DNA of 64,000 bases from Mariniphaga sp. (GTDB taxonomy: Bacteria > Bacteroidota > Bacteroidia > Bacteroidales > Prolixibacteraceae). The notes below the pieces were generated by a model. That model was not told the origin of the DNA. It was given only the letters and a program-made list of their open reading frames with translations, and ran no database searches. The position numbers were made by a program, and so were the translations under genes. The stretch covers positions 3,572 through 67,571 of the forward strand of contig NZ_JAWLCI010000018.1 in assembly GCF_041687215.1 (NCBI RefSeq). Direction: 5' to 3'. Numbering within the stretch: the first letter of the stretch is position 1; every line of letters starts with the position of its first letter. Positions 33,726-46,974 of the stretch are shown in pieces.

Positions 33726-36314
33726 CTAATTCCCAAAAACCAGTCCCTCATTTTCCACATCAATTTCAATGGGTTTGCTTTTGTCCACCTGGCCTGACAG
33801 AATTCTGCGCGACAATTCGTTCAGCACATATTTCTGTAAAATCCGTTTTACCGGCCGTGCGCCAAAGTGCGGGTCGTAACTTACCGCAGCCAGCCAGTCG
33901 ATGGCCTTTTCGGTCAGGCTGATTTTCACATCGGTACCCGACAACCGTTTTACCACCTGGTTAAACTGCAGTTTTACAATCTGGTTGATGTCTGCACGCG
34001 AAAGTGGCGTAAACACAATGGTTTCGTCAATGCGGTTCAGAAACTCGGGCCGGATGGTTTTACGCAAAAGCTCCAGCAACTGGTTCCGCGTTTGCTCCAT
34101 CACTATGCCCATATTATCGGCATCCAGGTTTTCAAAACTTTCCTGAATGAGGTGCGACCCCAGGTTGGAAGTCATAATGATGATGGTGTTTTTGAAGTTG
34201 ACCGTCCGTCCTTTGTTGTCAGTCAGCCGGCCATCGTCGAGCACCTGAAGCAGGACGTTAAACACATCAGGGTGTGCTTTTTCAATTTCGTCGAATAAAA
34301 CCACCGAATAGGGTTTGTGGCGAACAGACTCGGTTAACTGGCCGCCTTCGTCGTAACCCACATATCCGGGAGGACTGCCGATAAGCCGGGTAACCGAAAA
34401 TTTTTCCTGGTACTCCGACATGTCGATGCGGGTAATCATGTTCTCGTCGTTGAACAGGTATTCGGCCAGTGCTTTGGCCAACTCGGTTTTTCCCACACCG
34501 GTTGAACCCAGAAAAATAAACGACCCAATGGGGCGCTTTTCGTCCTGCAAACCGGCCCTACTGCGGCGAACAGCGTCCGAAACGGCAGCAATGGCTTCAT
34601 CCTGCCCTACCACACGTTTATGCAACTCGTCTTCCATGAGCAACAACTTTTCGCGTTCGCTCTGCAACATTTTCGAAACCGGAATTCCGGTCCAGCGGGC
34701 AACTACTTCGGCAATGTCTTCGGCGTCAACTTCTTCTTTAATCAGGCTGTCGCCAGCTTTCATTTTTTGCAACTCTTTTTGAAGCTTTTCAATTTCATTC
34801 TCAGCCTCTTTTATTTTTCCGTAACGCAGTTCGGCCACACGGTCGTAACGGCCCTGACGTTCGGCATCTTCAGCTTCAAATTTGTAATCTTCAATTTCAG
34901 CTTTCTTTTTCTGAATGGAGTCAATAACCTGCTTTTCACTTTCCCATTTGGCGCGCAACCGGGATTGTTCTTCTTTTAAATTTGAAATTTCTCCACCCAG
35001 CGAATCCAGTTTTTTATGATCCTTTTCGCGCTTAATGGCTTCACGTTCAATTTCCAGTTGTTTGATGCGGCGTTCAATTTCATCCAGCTCTTCCGGCACC
35101 GAATCCATTTCCAGACGCAGTTTGGCCGCAGCCTCATCCATCAGGTCGATGGCTTTGTCGGGTAAAAACCGGTCAGAAATGTAACGTTGCGATAACTCCA
35201 CTGCCGCAATAATAGCATCGTCTTTTATCCGTACTTTGTGGTGACTTTCGTACCGTTCTTTTATTCCACGCAGAATAGAAATGGCGCTGAGTGTATCTGG
35301 TTCGTCCACTTTCACCACCTGGAAACGGCGTTCGAGCGCTTTATCTTTTTCAAAATATTTTTGATATTCGTTAAACGTAGTTGCACCAATGGCGCGCAAC
35401 TCACCACGGGCCAGTGCCGGTTTCAGAATATTGGCCGCATCCATGGCGCCTTCGCTTTTTCCGGCGCCCACCAGGGTGTGAATTTCGTCGATAAACAGAA
35501 TCACTTCTTCGTTGGAATGCACCACTTCGTTTACCACTGCTTTCAATCTTTCTTCGAATTCACCTTTGTATTTGGCGCCGGCAATCAATGCGCCCATATC
35601 GAGCGAAAAAACCTGTTTGGATTTCAGGTTTTCGGGCACATCGCCACGCACAATCCGGTGGGCCAAACCTTCGGCAATAGCGGTTTTTCCGGTTCCGGGC
35701 TCGCCTATCAGAATCGGGTTGTTTTTGGTACGACGGGTAAGAATCTGCAAAATCCGCCGGATTTCCTCATCACGGCCGATCACCGGATCAAGTTTCCCTG
35801 AACGCGCCCTTTCATTCAAATTCAGGGCAAACCGGTTGAGCGAATTGAAACGGTCTTCAGCAGTTTGACTGTCCACTTTGGAGCCTTTGCGCAGTTCCTG
35901 TATGGCTTTTTGCAAATCATTTTTGGAAATGCCGTTGTCTTTCATTAAGCGGCTTACAGAATCGCCCCCATCAAGCAGTGCCAGTAAAATGTGTTCTACC
36001 GAAACATACTGGTCGCCCATTTCCTGAGCCAGCGCCAAGGCTTTTTGCAGCACACGGTTGGCCGTTGTAGAGATATAGGGTTCACCGCCGGTTACCCGCG
36101 GGTACGATTCAATGATCTTGTCAGCCGCCTGTTGAAAAATGGAAATATTTACGCCCAACTTTTTCAACAAAAATTCCAGCACATTTTCGGCGGAATGGGT
36201 CAATCCTTTCAAAATATGGCCGGGTTCAATACTTTGCTGGTTATTTCCCTGTGCAATTTGAAATGCATGTTGGACGGCCTCCTGGGCCTTTATGGTAAAA
36301 TTATTCAGATTCAT
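33726..36314 (-). CDS. clpB: ATP-dependent chaperone ClpB
   Basis: Clp N-domain, two AAA+ modules (GEPGTGKT, GSTGVGKT), middle coiled coil, GARP. Confidence 0.97.
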   Translation of the reverse strand: MNLNNFTIKAQEAVQHAFQIAQGNNQQSIEPGHILKGLTHSAENVLEFLLKKLGVNISIFQQAADKIIESYPRVTGGEPYISTTANRVLQKALALAQEMGDQYVSVEHILLALLDGGDSVSRLMKDNGISKNDLQKAIQELRKGSKVDSQTAEDRFNSLNRFALNLNERARSGKLDPVIGRDEEIRRILQILTRRTKNNPILIGEPGTGKTAIAEGLAHRIVRGDVPENLKSKQVFSLDMGALIAGAKYKGEFEERLKAVVNEVVHSNEEVILFIDEIHTLVGAGKSEGAMDAANILKPALARGELRAIGATTFNEYQKYFEKDKALERRFQVVKVDEPDTLSAISILRGIKERYESHHKVRIKDDAIIAAVELSQRYISDRFLPDKAIDLMDEAAAKLRLEMDSVPEELDEIERRIKQLEIEREAIKREKDHKKLDSLGGEISNLKEEQSRLRAKWESEKQVIDSIQKKKAEIEDYKFEAEDAERQGRYDRVAELRYGKIKEAENEIEKLQKELQKMKAGDSLIKEEVDAEDIAEVVARWTGIPVSKMLQSEREKLLLMEDELHKRVVGQDEAIAAVSDAVRRSRAGLQDEKRPIGSFIFLGSTGVGKTELAKALAEYLFNDENMITRIDMSEYQEKFSVTRLIGSPPGYVGYDEGGQLTESVRHKPYSVVLFDEIEKAHPDVFNVLLQVLDDGRLTDNKGRTVNFKNTIIIMTSNLGSHLIQESFENLDADNMGIVMEQTRNQLLELLRKTIRPEFLNRIDETIVFTPLSRADINQIVKLQFNQVVKRLSGTDVKISLTEKAIDWLAAVSYDPHFGARPVKRILQKYVLNELSRRILSGQVDKSKPIEIDVENEGLVFGN

Positions 36315-37154: not shown

Positions 37155-38066
37155 CTATTTAAAAAAGTTCAGGTTATAACTTACCATCACTTCGTGGGTG
37201 CCATTATTGAAAGTATTCAGTTTTGAAAAACTTAAATCGTAGGAATATCCAATCAGCATGTTTTCGGTGGCATTAAGTTGTGCCAGAAGCCCCCAGGAAT
37301 CGCCAAACCTCAACATGGTTCCAAACCAGAACCGATCTTTTAAACCCCCAAGTGCAGTTAAATCGAAGGAAACCGGGGCATTTTTCACAACCTTCAGCAT
37401 GGAGTGGCTTTTAATTTTAATGAATTCGTTCACCGTGAAAATGTGACCTCCCATCAGGTATAAATGAATCTTTTCCCTGCCAACATATTCTGAAGAATAG
37501 TCTTCGCGGCTGATACTGTTTTCAACGAGTTTAGGTACCGAAATGCCCACATACGTTTTTTCAGAAAAAAGAAATCCTCCCACACCAAAGTTTGGCAGGA
37601 AGTTTTTAAAGATATCCCGCTGGTAAATCGGGTCAGGATTAATGGTTTCCAGTGAGACAAGGTCGGCACGGTAAAATGAGAAGCCACCCTTCAGACCAAG
37701 ACTAAGCCTGAAATCCTGATTCAACCGCAACCAATACGAATAATCGAAATAGAGCCCGGTTTGCGTAAGCGGCCCTATTTTATCGGACAAAACAGAAAAG
37801 CCAACTCCCAAATTCAAATCCTTTATGGGGGTATGAAAAGAAAATGTCCGTGTACGCGGTGCACCGTCGAATGCCACCCACTGATTACGGGCCACCACCA
37901 TAAAATTACCAATTTCTTTGGTGCCTGCATAACCCGGATTCACTATCAGCAGATTATCCATGTACTGCGTGTACATCGGGTCTTGCTGGGCAATGGATAC
38001 ACCTGTACTTCCGCTTAAAATAAGCAGCAGAATTGCAAGTTGTGTTATTTTCTTTCTTACCATCAT
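37155..38066 (-). CDS. PorP/SprF family T9SS membrane protein
   Basis: QQDPMYTQYM..NPGYAG..RNQW..GAP; C-terminal GYSYD...GTHEVMVSY. Confidence 0.92.
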   Translation of the reverse strand: MMVRKKITQLAILLLILSGSTGVSIAQQDPMYTQYMDNLLIVNPGYAGTKEIGNFMVVARNQWVAFDGAPRTRTFSFHTPIKDLNLGVGFSVLSDKIGPLTQTGLYFDYSYWLRLNQDFRLSLGLKGGFSFYRADLVSLETINPDPIYQRDIFKNFLPNFGVGGFLFSEKTYVGISVPKLVENSISREDYSSEYVGREKIHLYLMGGHIFTVNEFIKIKSHSMLKVVKNAPVSFDLTALGGLKDRFWFGTMLRFGDSWGLLAQLNATENMLIGYSYDLSFSKLNTFNNGTHEVMVSYNLNFFK

Positions 38067-38070
38067 TTTG

Positions 38071-40977
38071 CTACCTGTCTAAATAAACCGAACCAACAAT
38101 ACGTTTTTCACCGTTGCCCAAATCGAGCACGTAGAAGTAAGTTCCGCCGGGCAATTCCTCGTTCCCCAATCTTACGCCGGTATTCGATTTTCCATCCCAA
38201 AATGTTGGTGACGTTTCAATTCCATAATTATTGGCCCGGTAAACCCGGTTGCCCCAGCGGTTAAATATTTCGATGCTATTCCCCTGGTAATGTTCAATAC
38301 CCTGAATTTCAAAATAGTCGTTTACCCCATCGTTGTTGGGTGAGAATGCGTTGGGAATAAAAAAGCGAAAATCGTTTATCAACACGTAAACCATGGCATT
38401 GCTGCAATTTCCGGCCAAATCGCAAATGCGGTATTCAAAATAGTCGTTCCCGTGGAAATTCCTGTCCGGATCATAAACAATTGCCGGACCTGTATAATCA
38501 ACCGAAGCCGAACCAAACATGGGTTGCACGGAAACTGCCAGTGAAGCCGAATCTAAATCGCCGTCCACATCATAATCGTTGGCCAGAACATCTATTTTAA
38601 CAGAAATGCGGTATTGAGTAGTGTCGTAATCGTCGAGCGCCACCGGTGCAGAAGCCAGCAAACCGACGGTAACCGAATCCACATCGGAACAGCCAAACTG
38701 GTTGGTAACCTGCAAAATATATGTTCCTGTTTTACTCACCACCGGGTTGGCTGTTGTTTCACCACTTTCAATAATGCCGTCGGAAGTCTTCCACAAGTAC
38801 TGCAAGCCGGTACCCAAACTGCTGTTTCCTTCCAGAACTGCCGACTCACCGCCGAACATAAATACATCTTCCCCCGCATCGGCTACAACTTTAGAAACAT
38901 TAACCCAAACAGAATCTTCAGCACTAAAACCATATTCATTCGAAACGGTGAGCGTAAATAGTGTGGTTTCGCCTGGCACAAAAACCGGAGTCCGGCTGTT
39001 GGGATCGTCAAGCAATTCGGCAGGTTCCCATCTGTAGTTAAATGATTCACTCAGATTGAGGGCAGCCAGTGTAAAAGGATTGCAATTGCCGATGGTGGTA
39101 TCTCTTCCGGCCAGTTCAACCCACTGGTTACCCGGAGCAACCAAAATAAATCCGGTTCCCTGCACACATTCCTGAGGATCATTGGTATTGCAAACCTGGT
39201 AAACGAACCAGTCAACTCCCACATATCCTTCTTCTGGAACATAAGTAAAAGTACCATCGGGATAAATCTGCACTGTTCCGTGAGACGTTGAAATCACCGC
39301 CTCAGAATTGTACACCAGATTTTCACCCAAAAGGTCATGATCATTTTCACGAAGGCTGTAAATTCCACCCGCCACATGCAAATACATATCATCCGATGCC
39401 GAAATGGGTTTCTGCACTCCATCTCCAAAATCGCTCACAAATACATACACCCAGGCTGAATCGCATTCAACAGGTGACCCCGAATCACAAATGCGATACA
39501 TAAACCGGTCAATACCTTTATAGCCCGGAAAAGGTGTGTAGGCAAAGCTGCCGTCGTTGTTTATAACCACAGTTCCGTTTTGCGGGCCTGATAAAGGAGT
39601 AGTATTCACATTCAATGGCACACCAAATCCGTCGGGGTCAATATCATTTGCCAGTAAAATACTGAAAACAGTTTGATCGGGCAGGGTTAGCGCTACATCG
39701 GTAACTGCAACGGGAGCTATATTATTCGTTGTTTCCAGTGGCAATATTCTGATTTCCACATCAGCGCCGGTACATTCGTTGCTTTGGTTTAAATAACAAA
39801 CCCGATAACTGAAATTCACTTTCCCGGTGAATCCGTCCGGTGGTGTATATTCATAAGTTCCGTTATCGAAAAATGTTAGTCCGTTAATTCCTTCACCCTC
39901 AAGTGTGTAAACCACGCCGGCATCCTGGTTAAGAAAATCGAAGTCATTGATGCTTACATCGCCAAACAGTTTGGTATTTTCATACCCCATATTGATGTCA
40001 GGCAATGCCACCAGTGAAGGAATAAATCCTTCCACTTCGGAAACTGCAAAGGATTTTGAAATGATTTCAGACAAACACCCGTTGGCATCGGTTGCCTGCA
40101 CAAAAAGTTCATAGTTGCCTTCGGAATCCCAGAAGCGTTCTTCAGTGGAATGTGAAGTGGAAATAAAATCATTACGGTTGTTAAATTCATCGGTAAACCA
40201 CCATTCATGCATAAAATCTGTACCAGATAAGACCCTGAATGTATGGCTGGAAAACAAAGCGATTGTTTCCGGCAACGGATTTTCAAATTCAATTTCTGGT
40301 ATAGCATGGATGGTGTGCTTATGAACAGCATTGGTAAGTTGCAACGGCACATCATTGTCATCTGTAATACTTATTAATTCAACGGTAACTGGTGTGCTAA
40401 TTCCGGGTCCGGTACTGAACCACTCATCACTTATCTGTAATTTTTGCAGACTGAACTCAAGCAGAACTGAATGAGTTGAGCCGTTTACATTGAATTCAAT
40501 TTTTAGCGGAAAATAATTTGAAGTGAGCGGCAGACCGTCATTATTCAGTATTATAAGAGGTAATTCAAAACTGTTTTCTGAACTATTAAAACAGGATTGA
40601 CTTGCTACAGACTCAAAACCTACTGACCGGTTATTCGGTATAACAGTTACGGACATTGCTTTGGAATTAGTGCACCCTGAAATATCCGTTTCAACCACCG
40701 CGATGTAATACAAACCTGGTTTATCCCACTGAATATTGATAATGTGACCGGTATTTCCATTGGGGAAAACCACCTCGGGATCAGTGGCTGAAATGGAAAA
40801 AGTTGGTTCGTTGAAAACAGTCCATTCATATTCACTTCCCGTGCGTTCTTCAACAAAATACGAGCGTGTTTCGCCAACAGAAACTACAAAGTGCTCCTGT
40901 GCCGCAGCAAAAGCCACAGCCCAAATCGTCAGTATTGCCGACAATACCAGGCGCCTGTATTTAAAAACTGTTCGCAT
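38071..40977 (-). CDS. T9SS type-B CTD (CHU_C / gliding-motility-associated) surface protein with PKD/Ig-like repeats
   Basis: Signal peptide; ANDxDxDG / GSFAYTP Ig-like repeats; C-terminal IPNAFSPNNDGVND..FNRWG..WDG..GTYFY. Confidence 0.9.
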   Translation of the reverse strand: MRTVFKYRRLVLSAILTIWAVAFAAAQEHFVVSVGETRSYFVEERTGSEYEWTVFNEPTFSISATDPEVVFPNGNTGHIINIQWDKPGLYYIAVVETDISGCTNSKAMSVTVIPNNRSVGFESVASQSCFNSSENSFELPLIILNNDGLPLTSNYFPLKIEFNVNGSTHSVLLEFSLQKLQISDEWFSTGPGISTPVTVELISITDDNDVPLQLTNAVHKHTIHAIPEIEFENPLPETIALFSSHTFRVLSGTDFMHEWWFTDEFNNRNDFISTSHSTEERFWDSEGNYELFVQATDANGCLSEIISKSFAVSEVEGFIPSLVALPDINMGYENTKLFGDVSINDFDFLNQDAGVVYTLEGEGINGLTFFDNGTYEYTPPDGFTGKVNFSYRVCYLNQSNECTGADVEIRILPLETTNNIAPVAVTDVALTLPDQTVFSILLANDIDPDGFGVPLNVNTTPLSGPQNGTVVINNDGSFAYTPFPGYKGIDRFMYRICDSGSPVECDSAWVYVFVSDFGDGVQKPISASDDMYLHVAGGIYSLRENDHDLLGENLVYNSEAVISTSHGTVQIYPDGTFTYVPEEGYVGVDWFVYQVCNTNDPQECVQGTGFILVAPGNQWVELAGRDTTIGNCNPFTLAALNLSESFNYRWEPAELLDDPNSRTPVFVPGETTLFTLTVSNEYGFSAEDSVWVNVSKVVADAGEDVFMFGGESAVLEGNSSLGTGLQYLWKTSDGIIESGETTANPVVSKTGTYILQVTNQFGCSDVDSVTVGLLASAPVALDDYDTTQYRISVKIDVLANDYDVDGDLDSASLAVSVQPMFGSASVDYTGPAIVYDPDRNFHGNDYFEYRICDLAGNCSNAMVYVLINDFRFFIPNAFSPNNDGVNDYFEIQGIEHYQGNSIEIFNRWGNRVYRANNYGIETSPTFWDGKSNTGVRLGNEELPGGTYFYVLDLGNGEKRIVGSVYLDR

Positions 40978-41172
40978 TTATGCGCGCATACTTTTATTTT
41001 TTAGCCACTAAATCACGAAGAATTCGCAAATCATATCATTAAAATCATTTACATATACTTAAAAGACTTTCTTTACATAATCTTTTTCCATTCAAATCAA
41101 TAGTGACCTTTACGTCCCTGTAAAGAAAAATCCGGTTCAGACCATTCCAATGCCTTACAACATCCAGCCCGG

Positions 41173-41199
41173 TTGGGCAGGGAATTTTTCCCTGCCCAA
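41173..41199 (-). terminator. Intercistronic hairpin (stabiliser or partial terminator)
   Basis: ttgggcaggga-atttt-tccctgcccaa, 11-bp perfect stem 40 nt after the 41239 stop; no U tail on the coding strand. Confidence 0.6.
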
Positions 41200-41238
41200 A
41201 AGCTGTATTTTGAAAAGCTATTATTCATTTTAAAACTA

Positions 41239-42186
41239 TTAGTCAGTCTGTATTCCAGTTGTTGACGGACGAGCTTGAATAGTTTGAGTCTGAACAGGAG
41301 TAGCAGTAATATCAGTCCCTGCATTATTGGTTATTTCAGTAACGGCATTTTCACCATCGTCTTCAACATCTGACAAGGTAAGTGTAATCGTTTTTTCTGA
41401 AAGATTTTCTTCGAATGCAGCATCATCAGATGTGCCGTTATTCACATTTACACGGAAATAAACAACTTCTGAACCAGCCCCATTGGCAGGAACTGTAAGA
41501 TTCGGTTCATCATCCCACTCAGCAAAGGTTCCTGCTTCTCCAATTTTATATTCCACTGTTACATCAGTATTGATAGTTTCGACAAAGGTTCCAACAAATG
41601 ACCAGCTTGAATAAAGATCAGATGCCGTCAGTTTAAACATGAAATTGTCGGTTCCGTAATTGTAAGTAATATCTGCTCCATCAGCAGAAAGTGCAATATC
41701 AACCGGACAACGAGTAGGATCATCTGTCAAAGTAGTACCGTCTGAAGCAAGAGCTTCAAATAATAATGTGAAATTGTTGGTTGGCAAAATTGGAATTGCT
41801 TTAATGTTAGTACATAAAGGGTCAACTCCAACTTCCTGTACTACCAAATAATAATAGTTTGTTGTTGATGCAGTTGGGTTCCATTTTAATTCAATACTAT
41901 TACCTCCAACAGTTCCAGTGTTATATTCAACTCCACCATTTGTTGTAATAACTTCAAAATCACTTGTTAATGCAGTAGGTGTTAAAAGGTTTCCTGGAGT
42001 TGTACTAATCCACCACGTGTAAGTACTGGTTTCACCAGCTTCAGTTGGAGTTTCAAATGTTCCATTTACCCAATACTTGTGTATTGATCCAATCGAAGGT
42101 TCAGTTCCGGTATTTGTTTGTGCAAAAACCTTTGCACTCATTGCGGTTAAGGCAACCGCGGCCAAAAGAATAAATAGCTTTTTCAT
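41239..42186 (-). CDS. Secreted beta-rich protein, candidate fimbrial subunit
   Basis: SPI signal (KVFA|Q); N-domain GSIHKYWV..YTW..LKW..EVG..C; C-tail QARPSTTGIQTD. Confidence 0.75.
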   Translation of the reverse strand: MKKLFILLAAVALTAMSAKVFAQTNTGTEPSIGSIHKYWVNGTFETPTEAGETSTYTWWISTTPGNLLTPTALTSDFEVITTNGGVEYNTGTVGGNSIELKWNPTASTTNYYYLVVQEVGVDPLCTNIKAIPILPTNNFTLLFEALASDGTTLTDDPTRCPVDIALSADGADITYNYGTDNFMFKLTASDLYSSWSFVGTFVETINTDVTVEYKIGEAGTFAEWDDEPNLTVPANGAGSEVVYFRVNVNNGTSDDAAFEENLSEKTITLTLSDVEDDGENAVTEITNNAGTDITATPVQTQTIQARPSTTGIQTD

Positions 42187-42253
42187 GTTTGTAAATTTTA
42201 ATTGTGAATAAAATAATTTGTTTAAAATGTTAATTTATAAAGTTTTATAATTC

Positions 42254-43027
42254 CTAATCAGTTGAAATATCTGATGTTTGCGGTATTGGGTTGATGCTTT
42301 GTGTGGCTGTCCAGTCATCACTGTCAACATCGGGTGTATTGTATGTCAGTTCTTTGGCAGATGTAAAAGTTAAAATCACATCTTCAGCACTGTAAAGTTC
42401 TCCGGTTGCATCCATTGTAATGGTAACTGAACCTGCGCCGGATGTACTCGTCAGATCAGTTAGTGTATATGTTCCACCACTTTCAGAAAGCGTTCCGGAA
42501 CCGGCTGATACATTGGCAACAGTTGCACCGCTGGAAGAAATTAAAGTAAAACTAAACTCCCAGTTTGGATTGAAAGCTGCATCGTCGGTTTTCATATCCA
42601 CTACAAAAGAAACTTCTGTGGTAACATCAGTTCCTGCATAATTTACCATGCCGTCGGCAGCATTACAGGTGGCAGCAGGCGCAACTGCAGTTACATCGAA
42701 GGTGTTTTCAGAAACTGTTATTTCAAGTTCTTTGATAGTTGCACAATTTGTTGTTCCGTCCAATTCAGTAAATTGCAATTTGTATGAACCTGCTGTTGTC
42801 CAGGTTATATTTGCAACAGAATTATCCCCATCAATGGTTTGGGAATTAATAATGTAACCCGTAGACTCTACAATACTCCAGGTGAGAGAATTAGATGTAC
42901 TTTCGGGTTCAACTGTATAGTTATGAGTTGAACCCACAAAAGGCGTTTCCCCATCCTGTGCCATTACCCCGGAACTTATCAGCAGCAGGGCGGTGGCAGT
43001 CATTAAAAATGTAAATACTTTTTTCAT
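42254..43027 (-). CDS. Secreted beta-rich protein, candidate fimbrial subunit
   Basis: SPI signal (GVMA|Q); GSTHNYTV..LTW..ITW..GSYKL..E..C; C-tail NPIPQTSDISTD; start reset to MKKVF. Confidence 0.75.
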   Translation of the reverse strand: MKKVFTFLMTATALLLISSGVMAQDGETPFVGSTHNYTVEPESTSNSLTWSIVESTGYIINSQTIDGDNSVANITWTTAGSYKLQFTELDGTTNCATIKELEITVSENTFDVTAVAPAATCNAADGMVNYAGTDVTTEVSFVVDMKTDDAAFNPNWEFSFTLISSSGATVANVSAGSGTLSESGGTYTLTDLTSTSGAGSVTITMDATGELYSAEDVILTFTSAKELTYNTPDVDSDDWTATQSINPIPQTSDISTD

Positions 43028-43071: not shown

Positions 43072-44034
43072 TTAGTCAGGGATTATTTCACCGGTTGCTG
43101 GGAACGGATAAATTGTTACTGTAAAATTTTCCTCGTCCACACATCCACCACCGGCATCGTCATAAATATATAAAGTGATTGAGATTGTTATTTCATCTCC
43201 GGGATTCAGTAAACTTCCAGTGCCCCCAGGTCCGGTAAAATATGCTGCATTTCCGCTAAGGTTTGATCCCGAAATAGCAGGTAAAGTAAGACTGCCGCAG
43301 GAATTGATGTCACCGGGATTGGTGATTTGAGGCGGGTTACATTCATAAATTAATTCCACAATATAAGGAGGAATGATTCCACCGTCCACATTTTCCTCAA
43401 GGGAGGTTTCGGTACCAGAATGGCAGTCGTCCGTATTGGTTTGGGTTAATCCATCGTAATTATCACAAGCAACCAAACCTGTATTTTCGTTAATTGTTCC
43501 GAAAATATAAATACTGGCATCGTTTATCACAATGTCTCCCTGTTGAGTTGCCCCATCTTTTGTCAGGTTACCCATCACAATAAAATAACTGGAAAGATTC
43601 AGGCTAACTTTATTTGTTAAATGAACATTGCCCTTTACCAAAACGAGCGAATTGACTCCCATCACAAATTCCGACTCATTGTTGCCCTGAAAATTCATTG
43701 TCATATCGTTGTTGACTATCAAAGTTCCATAAACAATCAATTTTCCAGTAGCATTAATTGTTAAATCATTAACTTCAGCAGTTGTTCCAGCCTGTATTGT
43801 TACAATATCATTTATGACAACATTATCTGTGGCTGTTGGAACAGAACCCGTTCCCCATGTGCCTGGGGAACTCCAATTACCATTGCTGGTTGAAGTAATT
43901 TGTGCCTGAAGGGGATTTGAAGAAAAAAACATTAAAAACAAAAGCAATAAAAACAGAGCAGGTGCTTTTCTGAAAAACATCCGCTCCTGGAAGCAATTTT
44001 TTAATTTCGAACTGGCATGTAAAGGTTCAGCCAT
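43072..44034 (-). CDS. Secreted protein with G8-like/beta-helix N-domain, candidate tip subunit
   Basis: SPI signal (LQA|Q); GNWSSPGTW..P..TDNVVI; C-tail YPFPATGEIIPD; start may be 43980. Confidence 0.7.
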   Translation of the reverse strand: MAEPLHASSKLKNCFQERMFFRKAPALFLLLLFLMFFSSNPLQAQITSTSNGNWSSPGTWGTGSVPTATDNVVINDIVTIQAGTTAEVNDLTINATGKLIVYGTLIVNNDMTMNFQGNNESEFVMGVNSLVLVKGNVHLTNKVSLNLSSYFIVMGNLTKDGATQQGDIVINDASIYIFGTINENTGLVACDNYDGLTQTNTDDCHSGTETSLEENVDGGIIPPYIVELIYECNPPQITNPGDINSCGSLTLPAISGSNLSGNAAYFTGPGGTGSLLNPGDEITISITLYIYDDAGGGCVDEENFTVTIYPFPATGEIIPD

Positions 44035-44529: not shown

Positions 44530-46974
44530 CTACTTCTTAACCATTTTTTGGGTAAACAATTCATTTTTCCCGCAGGATACTTTTAACAAATAAATTCCAC
44601 TTTTTGCGTCGGACAATTCGATTGATTCCTGGTTGCCCAATGGAAATACTCCATCTTTTTTATAAATCGTTTTTCCAAAAATATCGATTACCGAAACTTC
44701 AACCTGATCGCTGTTTTCAAAGGCCGAAAAATCAAGAAAAAATTTATTGTCAAACGGGTTGGGAAATGCAAGAATTGATTTTTGGACAATCAAATCGCTG
44801 TCGGTAGCCAGGTTTGTTTGAATTTCAAGATTATCAATTGCCCATCCCCAGCCATTCAACGATTGGTCTGAGGCAAGCCTGAACCGAAAAAGTACCGTGT
44901 CACCTGCGGAGAAATCTGTATTATCGGTAAGGTGAATTATATTTTTCAAAAACATATTCTGGTTGCCCACGGCCTGTGATTTGTTGTTTACCGTTGAAGT
45001 TAAAAATGCCGATTCCCATTTTTCATTTGCACCGGAATCGTACCCGGGTGAAAAAGGAGACCAGGTAAAACCATCATCTTTACTTCCTTCCACAATTACA
45101 AAATCCCAGAATAAATCTTTTGTAAAGTCAGTGCCTTTTTCGCCGGGTTCTACCAAAACCACTTCATCAAAACGCAATTCGCCACCCTCCTGCAAAATAA
45201 CCGGGTATTTTAATTGCGCAATCAGGTTGAATTTTTCGTCTTTCACTGCCGACAAGGGGTAAGGATTGATAGTATGCAATATATTATCTGAAAAACCAAC
45301 CATTCTTGAAATATTGAAATCGGCAACTGCAAAATCGGATAAGCCGGTCTCAAAATCAGAAGAATATTCGTTTACCGGTTCAAGTGATTGGAAAAAACTG
45401 ACCGAATAAAATCCGGCTGATGGTGAATATTTTTTATTTCCATTGGCCGATTTATCTTCTGCAACAATCCGGTATTCCAAATTTCCATTTTTAAACTGTT
45501 CGTTATTTAGCTGGAGTATTCCTGAATAATTTTCTTTTCCTGATAATTTAAGCTCAACAGGAGATTGCAATTCTCCGTTAAATTTATACTCCACTTTAAC
45601 CGTATTTACCCCGAGATTATCTTTTGCCAAAGCATGAACTAAAAAATCGACCGAATTTCCGGGAATAATTTTTTGCGGATTATGGGCAATTACTGGTGGA
45701 ATATAATCGGGGCCAATTTTAAACGTAAGTTTTTTAACTGGCGCAGAGAATGGGAATGTATAAGTTTTCCCATTTGTTGTTTTGGCTTCAAAATAATAAT
45801 CAATTTTTCCGGTGGAATATTCAAGAGCAATTATTCCCTTAAATTTCCCGGCAGAATCAGCGCGGGTAAGTTCTGCAGAAGTTGAAGTTTCAAAATTATT
45901 GGCAGAAGAAATGATTTGAACCGAAAAATCTTTGGTTTCATCTCCAGTATAAATTTCAATTTCAACAGGTAGTTCAGCACATGGTTCTTCAAAATCTTTT
46001 AAAGGTTCAAATTCGAAAACAGGGGCATTCCAACCCATTTCATTTAAAATAGACAAAACTTCATTTCCCGGATGATGAATAGCTAACCCTTTGTCTGCAA
46101 ATGGCATCATTAAACCCCCATCATCTGTTAAATGATAAATACTGGCTCCTTCATTCCAGTAGGGAGGTGAATAAACTTCTGAAATCCGGGCATTTTTTTC
46201 ATTTTCGTTTGAAGCTAAAAATCTAAGATTGCCCGAAACCAGTGCATTATGCAGTTGAACTGACGGACTTGGAAATAGAACAGAATTGGCCAACTGCTGG
46301 TTATCTGTGTTAAAAACATACAAATCGTAAATGCTGGGCACATGGTTTCCGTTATTCAAAAAACCATTGGTACCATCATCTTTAAAAAATCCTGAAAAAC
46401 CCAGTCCGTGGGCAATTTCATGCAGAATTGCAGTAACAAAATCGTAATGTGTTTCAGGAGTATTTCCATCAGTCCCAAAATACCACGGCAAATTCTGATT
46501 AAAACTGCAAATAATATCATAATTTCCAGGATTCATATCTTCACCAGAAAGCTTTTCAGCCAGCGCAACCGGGTAATAAACATTTTTTTGCAGTACTTCC
46601 TCAAAATTCATATAAAACGAAGTTGGTCTGCTTTTGGCCAGAATGTTGGCATCCATCGATTCCATTTTAACCAGAACATTTACGGGAACCGGGCTATAAA
46701 AAAGACCCTCCCAAATTTGAAATGCATAGTTTAGGGCAGAATGTGCATCCTCAGTTAAATTTTCTGAATTTATCTTGAAAACCGCTTTAACAGAACCTGC
46801 AGATTTCAACTTTGATTTTTCAGGCGGTCCGGTAAATTTTTTGTTAATATTGCCTGATGCATAGTTAACAAAGTCATTCGTTAATGTTTTCTTCACTACC
46901 TCATTTTTTTGAGCTACGGCGTTGAAAACTCCCGAAATTAACCATAGTATTATGAACAGCCTATTCATTTTCAT
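44530..46974 (-). CDS. T9SS type-A CTD protein with zinc metallopeptidase motif
   Basis: ILHEIAHGLGF; C-terminal FPNPF..DIFGK..SGIYLLKV. Confidence 0.85.
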   Translation of the reverse strand: MKMNRLFIILWLISGVFNAVAQKNEVVKKTLTNDFVNYASGNINKKFTGPPEKSKLKSAGSVKAVFKINSENLTEDAHSALNYAFQIWEGLFYSPVPVNVLVKMESMDANILAKSRPTSFYMNFEEVLQKNVYYPVALAEKLSGEDMNPGNYDIICSFNQNLPWYFGTDGNTPETHYDFVTAILHEIAHGLGFSGFFKDDGTNGFLNNGNHVPSIYDLYVFNTDNQQLANSVLFPSPSVQLHNALVSGNLRFLASNENEKNARISEVYSPPYWNEGASIYHLTDDGGLMMPFADKGLAIHHPGNEVLSILNEMGWNAPVFEFEPLKDFEEPCAELPVEIEIYTGDETKDFSVQIISSANNFETSTSAELTRADSAGKFKGIIALEYSTGKIDYYFEAKTTNGKTYTFPFSAPVKKLTFKIGPDYIPPVIAHNPQKIIPGNSVDFLVHALAKDNLGVNTVKVEYKFNGELQSPVELKLSGKENYSGILQLNNEQFKNGNLEYRIVAEDKSANGNKKYSPSAGFYSVSFFQSLEPVNEYSSDFETGLSDFAVADFNISRMVGFSDNILHTINPYPLSAVKDEKFNLIAQLKYPVILQEGGELRFDEVVLVEPGEKGTDFTKDLFWDFVIVEGSKDDGFTWSPFSPGYDSGANEKWESAFLTSTVNNKSQAVGNQNMFLKNIIHLTDNTDFSAGDTVLFRFRLASDQSLNGWGWAIDNLEIQTNLATDSDLIVQKSILAFPNPFDNKFFLDFSAFENSDQVEVSVIDIFGKTIYKKDGVFPLGNQESIELSDAKSGIYLLKVSCGKNELFTQKMVKK

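Follow-up and report, generated by a model that had tools for sequence, protein, structure and literature searches.

The 64,000-nucleotide (nt) stretch of Mariniphaga sp. DNA analysed here, referred to as the window (contig NZ_JAWLCI010000018.1, positions 3,572 to 67,571), carries five minus-strand genes encoding three small proteins (P0004, P0003 and P0002), an adhesin with a type-B C-terminal sorting domain (CTD) of a type IX secretion system (T9SS) (P0001, the anchor), and an outer-membrane carrier of the PorP/SprF family. The anchor truly carries, built into its N-terminus, a copy of the type of module that makes up P0002 and P0003, and in relatives this module also occurs as a separate gene directly upstream of a shorter anchor. 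From the sequences, we infer a surface adhesin made of several proteins, arranged in order and head to tail on the anchor, a proposal to which we give about even chances.

The preliminary description of this DNA had aligned the mature N-termini by eye, and the motifs that it quoted are present in the translations: GETRSYFV..YEW..IQWDKPGLYYIAVVETDISGC and HTIHAIPEIEF in the anchor, GSTHNYTV..LTW..ITWTTAGSYKLQFTE..NC and a terminal SINPIPQTSDISTD in P0003 (the open reading frame, ORF, at 42254), and GSIHKYWV..YTW..LKW..YYLVVQE..LC and a terminal TIQARPSTTGIQTD in P0002 (the ORF at 41239). In full-length BLASTP comparisons, signal peptides included, the anchor matches P0003 with E 4e-5 and P0002 with E 7e-7. 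A match driven by the signal peptides is rejected, since the profile comparisons were repeated on mature sequences, using family alignments of 42 P0002-type proteins, 95 P0003-type proteins and 8–18 anchor modules. With the signal peptides removed, the anchor module (residues 27–231) aligns with each small-protein family at a profile–profile probability of 96.3% (E 1.7e-9), and the P0002 and P0003 families align with each other at 97% over their full length. The first domain (D1) of the anchor aligns with the D1 of both families in hhalign at 98.6%, with E 8e-16 and 1.2e-15. As controls, the same domain gives E 2.5e-7 against the third domain of the anchor (d3) and E 0.1, no match, against the K319L-type PKD domain further downstream. 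On this difference (D1–D1 E ~1e-15 versus 0.1), a chance match or a generic PKD likeness is rejected, and the D1 similarity, as judged from the alignments, is far beyond chance.

The second domains (D2) are less closely related. With shallow profiles, the D2–D2 comparisons are not significant (E 0.008–0.06); with deeper iterated profiles, the last 45–50 columns match the P0003 family with E 2.4e-5 (75%) and the P0002 family with E 4.4e-4 (34%), placing 'V.I..atD...htrTI.a.P.i.f' on 'V.l.ITsakel...atqTInaiPnTS.Ittd'. In this alignment HTxTIxAxPEIEF falls on TQTINxIPxTSxITTD, which bears out the earlier suggestion that HTIHAIPEI of the anchor occupies the position of the TIQARP/SINPIP tails of the subunits. 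In iterated searches with hidden Markov models (HMMs), the D2 set of the anchor-type module (A-module) never merged with the P0002 or P0003 D2 sets. Furthermore, a motif at the D1–D2 junction (PNNRSxGF / NTFDV / NNFTL) is common to the anchor module, P0002 and P0003, and a Cys pair, with one residue at the end of D1 and one at the start of D2, is conserved in the anchor module and the small proteins. The module fused to the anchor belongs to a third paralogous lineage and is a copy of neither upstream gene.

Structure predictions were made as monomers with AlphaFold2 (AF2) on the family alignments. The model of mature P0003 consists of two beta-sandwiches (predicted local distance difference test score, pLDDT, 95.7; predicted template-modelling score 0.81), and that of anchor residues 27–320 of three (pLDDT 92.3). 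Both models have the same domain order, with a second domain of 8–9 strands that closes with a long strand, a gap and a TIxAxP strand. The junction motif, the Cys pair, the strand order and the predicted models agree with D2 homology. For D1, the motif W..G.Y.L.V.E...C together with the immunoglobulin (Ig)-type AF2 model would fit a PKD-like fold; the only profile hits, PKD_2 for P0003 (E 0.028) and ChitinaseA_N for the anchor D1 (E 1.6e-4), are both below threshold.

The anchor is ordered as a signal peptide, the fused A-module, the D1-type d3, Big_9/cadherin-like repeats, a PKD pair, a further Big_9 domain and the CHU_C CTD. In Pfam and NCBIfam, it matches Big_9 (E 1e-46), Cadherin_5, CHU_C (PF13585, E 2.6e-27; 95 bits against a cut-off of 27) and TIGR04131 (E 6.6e-14; 51.8 bits against a cut-off of 35), with no above-threshold match in its first 330 residues. 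The mature start QEHFVV is kept in homologues, and D2 of the module ends in HTIHAIPEIEF, an internalised tail. The adjacent carrier matches PF11751 (E 5e-74) and TIGR03519 (E 1.6e-74), both above the cut-offs, and the SprA translocon (TIGR04189, 2716 bits) is encoded in the same genome. With a sorting domain, an adjacent PorP/SprF-like gene and SprA, the anchor is predicted to be a type-B CTD substrate. The features are collected in Table 1.

Table 1. Genes of the cassette and domains of the anchor, in window coordinates.
Feature	Coordinates	Strand	Remarks
P0004, tip-position protein	43072..44034	-	320 amino acids (aa); probable start MFFRK at 43980
P0003	42254..43027	-	257 aa from MKKVF start; ORF open to 43069 (271 aa)
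P0002	41239..42186	-	315 aa
P0001, anchor (T9SS type-B-CTD adhesin)	38071..40977	-	968 aa
Sec signal peptide of anchor, residues 1–26 (...AFAAA/QE)	40900..40977	-	read from sequence
D1 of built-in module, residues 27–114	40636..40899	-	putative PKD-like Ig domain; HMM boundaries; AF2 pLDDT >90
D2 of built-in module, residues 115–231	40285..40635	-	A_d2 HMM cover; 8-strand beta-sandwich (AF2)
d3, residues 236–316	40030..40272	-	second D1-type Ig domain; A_d1 versus d3 93%, E 2.5e-7
Type-B T9SS C-terminal sorting domain, residues 874–968	38074..38358	-	PF13585 874–966; TIGR04131 874–967
PorP/SprF-family outer-membrane carrier	37155..38066	-	303 aa; 4 nt downstream of anchor

The small proteins lack the CTD, and each ends at its stop codon in a short tail. 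P0002 contains a Sec signal peptide, D1, D2 and the tail ARPSTTGIQTD, and its family of 45 homologues conserves the tail QTQTVkARPaTtGIssN. P0003 has the same layout with the tail IPQTSDISTD, which in its 97 homologues reads TQTINaIPnTSxITTD. P0004 has neither CTD nor D1; it consists of a beta-helix-like N-terminal part with a weak G8 match in Pfam, a C-terminal Ig-like domain and the tail PFPATGEIIPD. None of the three has an above-threshold family in Pfam or NCBIfam, pilin, adhesin and CTD families included, and no CTD family matches them even at E<=0.1. Their signal peptides, like those of more than 140 homologues, are of the signal peptidase I type (...VFAQ, ...VMAQ) and free of Cys, hence with no lipobox Cys. 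A short, position-specific tail stands at the exact C-terminus of every non-anchor member of the cassette and is strictly conserved across the more than 140 homologues of the CTD-less members: P.TG.II.D in tip proteins, IP.TS.I.TD in the P0003 type, [AS]RP.T.GI..N in the P0002 type, and P.IEF, KP..S.I.. or LPQTG.M... in modules and extra members. The tails show an alternating pattern compatible with a beta-strand.

The cassette is conserved as a unit. P0003-type proteins are found in 22 of 201 genomes of the family, representing 10 of 36 genera, once per genome; a sample of 300 further genomes drawn from across the order has none. In all 23 loci the gene order is identical, running from the tip through the P0003-type, the P0002-type and 0–3 extra modules to the type-B-CTD anchor, and PorP/SprF is adjacent in 21. 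Among the cassette proteins the T9SS signal is confined to the anchor, and a D1-type domain starts every member save the tip. All 23 anchors open with it, regardless of stalk length (303–968 aa); the smallest anchor, the 303-aa protein of Draconibacterium orientale (cassette in locus L023), is reduced to a signal peptide, D1, one Big_9 domain and the CTD. In the D1 tree, the clades are position-specific: P3 (99/97 support), P2, an A-type clade that holds the D1 of the window's anchor beside the free-standing modules, and a d3-type clade (98/95 support) that includes the short anchors and 244-aa extra modules. P.IEF tails precede d3-type D1 domains, both in the 244-aa extras and in the short anchors. 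In the literature searched, no description of this cassette was found.

The tip-position proteins of the relatives (377–1266 aa, compared with 320 aa for P0004) are CTD-free, end in P.TG.II.D and display PA14/GLEYA, GEVED, Laminin_G_3, HYR, MBG_2, Ig_7, Gly_rich_2, SprB-repeat or beta-helix-like domains. The genes at this position (L023, L025, L027, L028, L031, L034, L036, L038) are highly variable between close relatives, with the last Ig domain and the tail staying conserved. In three loci (L034, L001, L033), the tip is joined directly to the P0003-type D2 and tail.

The A-module is free-standing in 8 of the 23 loci. Anchor homologues occur in a long form (951–968 aa) and a short form (745–757 aa), the difference being exactly the module: the mature N-terminus of the short form, DTIPLNTFHAF, corresponds to residue 236 of P0001, i.e. 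to d3. In relatives, a free-standing A-module gene of 242–286 aa lies directly upstream of the shorter anchor, as in the loci L001 (6544–7344) and L007 (1411–2190), where a separate 259–266-aa module gene stands just upstream and is followed by one further 244-aa paralogue ending PKPVIEF. In the genome search, the module is fused in G000, G006, G017 and G020, and free-standing (frames of 246–286 aa) in G012, G025, G027, G032 and G029. The D1 domains of anchors and of free-standing modules are intermixed in one clade of the D1 tree, in which the G363 anchor pairs as sister tip with the module of the congeneric G406 (100/98 support). By BLASTP, the G363 anchor consists of residues 1–116 of the G406 module (92% identity) and the stalk of the G406 anchor (74% identity), with the junction at the end-of-D1 motif; the module D2 and tail, the anchor signal peptide and the anchor's own D1-type domain are lost in one step. 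These two congeneric species, by their alignments, present a clean recent fusion, and in the window's genus the A-module has become joined in frame to the anchor, where its tail is internal yet still conserved.

Seen at the level of the loci (L035:5740-8058 versus L039:5857-8920, two congeneric species), the event is a clean in-frame recombination between paralogous D1 ends; the D1 of the upstream module has replaced the anchor's own D1-type domain, and the module D2 and tail and the anchor signal peptide are deleted. In one subgroup of free-standing A-modules, a conserved extension of ~35 aa (TEELRxxYxLNExITAY...) continues past PEIEF (L001:6544-7344, L007:1411-2190 and the library proteins P0161, P0175, P0179, P0185, P0188, P0194 and P0195). 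The extension overlaps the start of the next gene in L001 and L007 and is absent from the fused form.

In the proposed arrangement, the PorP/SprF carrier would export the anchor and hold it via the type-B CTD. The N-terminal D1 of the anchor would be the docking site for the P0002 tail, the D1 of P0002 would take the P0003 tail, and the D1 of P0003 would take the tail of the tip, resulting in an ordered non-covalent chain that presents a variable adhesin head out on the anchor. The tip proteins need a route to the surface because their domains are extracellular and the CTD is absent; the CTD-less members may reach it by riding on the anchor, with the chain assembled on the anchor and exported together with it. 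Such a chain would be the most economical model, because the tips carry extracellular, lectin-type domains without a signal, the donors equal the acceptors, the tail type tracks the next D1, and fusions drop a tail together with the D1 that follows. Three tails (tip, P0003 and P0002) face three acceptor D1 domains (P0003, P0002 and the anchor), and in the G363 fusion the tail and its presumed acceptor D1 are lost together. The fused module would then be one chain link turned covalent, a Rosetta-stone argument for physical contact. Since the module is free-standing in relatives, a D1-type domain starts every anchor and the T9SS signal is found only on the anchor, a docking role for the N-terminal module of the anchor is plausible.

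A more far-reaching proposal, put forward tentatively and leaning towards doubt, is that the cassette encodes a T9SS-dependent, PorP-anchored heteromeric fibre of an undescribed kind. In this fibre the CTD-less proteins, a variable tip with lectin domains and connectors specific to each position, would be linked head to tail, each short C-terminal tail docking on the next D1, and the CTD-bearing anchor would be their only means of crossing the outer membrane, with the fused module as a natural 'Rosetta stone' for one joint.

Several observations weigh against the ordered chain. In D2, the anchor module and the subunits show only moderate homology, at the probabilities given above (75% and 34%). 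Both AF2 monomers are confident and look complete, with the P0003 tail itself at pLDDT ~92 and nothing to suggest that a strand is lacking or a groove left open. Given the extension of some free-standing A-modules, PEIEF does not in every case mark the true C-terminus. As the gene order is invariant, the correlation of each tail with the next D1 is inseparable from synteny and shared ancestry. Moreover, the literature searched holds no precedent for piggyback T9SS export, and among sequencing runs holding the window sequence only DNA metagenome runs, and no RNA runs, were found.

An explanation by shared ancestry only, the best of the alternatives, is one that we consider rather unlikely. In this case, the operon would have grown by tandem duplication and shuffling of Ig-like modules, the anchor module would be a stalk domain without docking, and the small proteins would act alone, for example as periplasmic accessory proteins or chaperones for the anchor, or separately released. 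It accords with the self-sufficient look of the AF2 monomers, with the ready recombination of paralogous D1 ends, and with the occurrence of the same D1 type as 10–35 repeats in giant Bacteroidota proteins in a representative search. In addition, Foldseek against the PDB gives only generic tandem Ig matches with template-modelling (TM) scores of 0.3–0.5 (integrin legs, AgI/II C-domains, filamin, titin). Four features speak against it: the D1-type domain at the very N-terminus of every anchor irrespective of its length, the strict conservation of exactly C-terminal tails in all CTD-less members, the tips with lectin-type extracellular domains that have no secretion signal of their own, and the position-specific D1 clades.

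The preliminary description had gone further than the module copy, which stands, and had proposed that the anchor accepts the last subunit and terminates a polymer. In such a true pilus, P0002 and/or P0003 would homopolymerise by donor-strand-type exchange, and the subunit-like end of the anchor would stop growth. The alternating pattern of the tails is compatible with this, and the operon, with tip, shaft, anchor and a partner in the outer membrane, follows a logic like that of the Fim and Mfa operons of type V pili (FimA-E, Mfa1-5; PMC8512630, PMC5954841), in which the basal protein likewise resembles the subunits and assembly is similar to the head-to-tail, strand-mediated mode proposed here. 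Unlike type V pili, the proteins of the window have no lipoprotein signal, FimA/Mfa fold or Pfam family, a T9SS CTD and PorP, in place of a lipid, would hold their anchor, and the subunits look position-specific rather than polymerising. Neither model has a type V pilin among its top 50 Foldseek matches listed in the PDB, and the only chaperone–usher pilins listed, CfaB and CfaE, are weak matches (TMq ~0.35); neither a pilin fold nor a lipobox nor a known Pfam family of pilins was found, and the proteins show no chaperone or usher features. The gap of 261 nt that separates P0002 from the anchor, with its hairpin, could raise the expression of subunit relative to anchor, but the spacing from the P0002-type gene to the anchor varies from 9 to 398 nt across related loci and is not conserved in length. 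The hairpin (GGGCAGGGAA-AAA-TTCCCTGCCC, window 41174–41197, minus strand) is perfect over ~10 bp and lies ~40 nt past the stop codon of P0002; a T-run is lacking, and the scan for terminators passed it over. The homopolymer and terminator role becomes improbable because the D1 domains form position-specific clades; the tail types also differ by position, and the tail of a subunit is not obviously matched to its own D1. On these grounds, an ordered hetero-oligomer would fit better than a homopolymeric shaft.

It is very improbable that the tails, alone or together with D2, serve as a short signal of a new type for independent secretion or sorting by the T9SS or PorP and the anchor module an evolutionary leftover: the tails do stand at the exact C-terminus of all CTD-less members and some read LPQTG or RPxTSG, loosely like sorting motifs, but no CTD family matches them at the E-value given above, known T9SS signals are folded domains of 70–100 aa (PMC12618676), the tail remains conserved where it is internal in the fused anchor, and a sortase-type LPXTG signal is contradicted by RPSTTGIQTD, IPQTSDISTD and LPQTGTMDQDN, which stop 4–6 residues past the motif with no hydrophobic or charged segment after it.

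For type-B CTD proteins, export and anchoring are the task of cognate PorP-like proteins, as in the PG1035–PorP pair of P. gingivalis and the type-B substrate/shuttle pairs of F. johnsoniae (PMC9143113, PMC12618676). The cassette shares with these pairs an anchor with a PF13585/TIGR04131 CTD, a PorP/SprF gene 4 nt on, and SprA. It differs from them in that four or more polypeptides make up the adhesin, with the CTD on the basal one only, and in that the partners bear an N-terminal D1 and a conserved tail; for the known type-B pairs, no such partners were found described. The system appears to be a variation on type-B CTD/PorP surface anchoring.

In the gliding-track carrier SprF, a periplasmic Cys-X-Cys (CxC) C-tail forms a disulfide bond with GldK, linking SprF to the gliding track (PMC12635249). 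The PorP homologue in the window has no cysteine and ends in ...SYNLNFFK, and its orthologues, ending in ...SPRYF or ...SYFF, likewise have no CxC. Since the tail that ties SprF to the gliding track is absent, a static structure is more likely than a gliding-track adhesin. In the sprC-sprD-sprB-sprF operon of F. johnsoniae (Rhodes et al. 2011, cited in PMC12635249), CTD-less proteins encoded upstream of a type-B adhesin and its SprF carrier reportedly function with it. The likeness to the window is one of gene arrangement, with CTD-less proteins encoded upstream of a type-B adhesin and its carrier; the absence of the CxC C-tail sets the window's PorP apart from SprF, and the cassette anchors (303–968 aa) contrast with the giant SprB (~6500 aa).

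A further comparison is the grappling-hook filament protein GhpA of Aureispira, a T9SS substrate. It belongs to those matches of the anchor N-terminal model that superpose better, with TMq 0.50 and 0.48 (PDB 9flp and 9fly, ranks 2 and 15 by E-value), a generic tandem Ig match at 13–14% identity. Both are Bacteroidota surface proteins built as strings of Ig-like domains; GhpA is a single giant polypeptide in homo-oligomeric filaments, in contrast to the small tail-bearing proteins on a short anchor in the window.

Outside the cassette, a zinc metallopeptidase with a T9SS type-A CTD is encoded upstream at window 44530–46974. A role as maturation protease is unlikely, as the upstream neighbours differ in L023 (PspC and DUF4252), L001 and L002 (other genes), and the enzyme is probably merely a neighbour. 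After the PorP gene, clpB follows in the window (33726–36314) and also in the metagenome contig L001 (11627–17168), where it is followed in turn by genes for a DNA methylase and an HNH protein. Because clpB follows PorP there as in the window, L001 is a close relative that has the short-anchor, free-module arrangement. Meanwhile, a second pair of like design is present in the same genome outside the window (contig C60:1752-11208). Its first member, secreted and 232 aa long, has a D1-type domain and the terminal tail HPTPVNTRIYLKDE; next comes a giant type-B-CTD-like adhesin of 2810 aa, likewise D1-type at its N-terminus (E 3e-9), and a PorP gene is not adjacent.

T9SS substrates are defined by their C-terminal domain, and a surface route for CTD-free proteins lies outside the current model. 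A module that toggles between a separate gene and a fusion to the anchor, together with tips that carry no signal of their own, leads to a testable hypothesis in which adhesins are assembled from modules and exported by hitch-hiking. A swap of tips among close relatives would exchange the head and leave the secretion parts untouched. With the second pair on C60 and 1333 library hits, the principle may be widespread.

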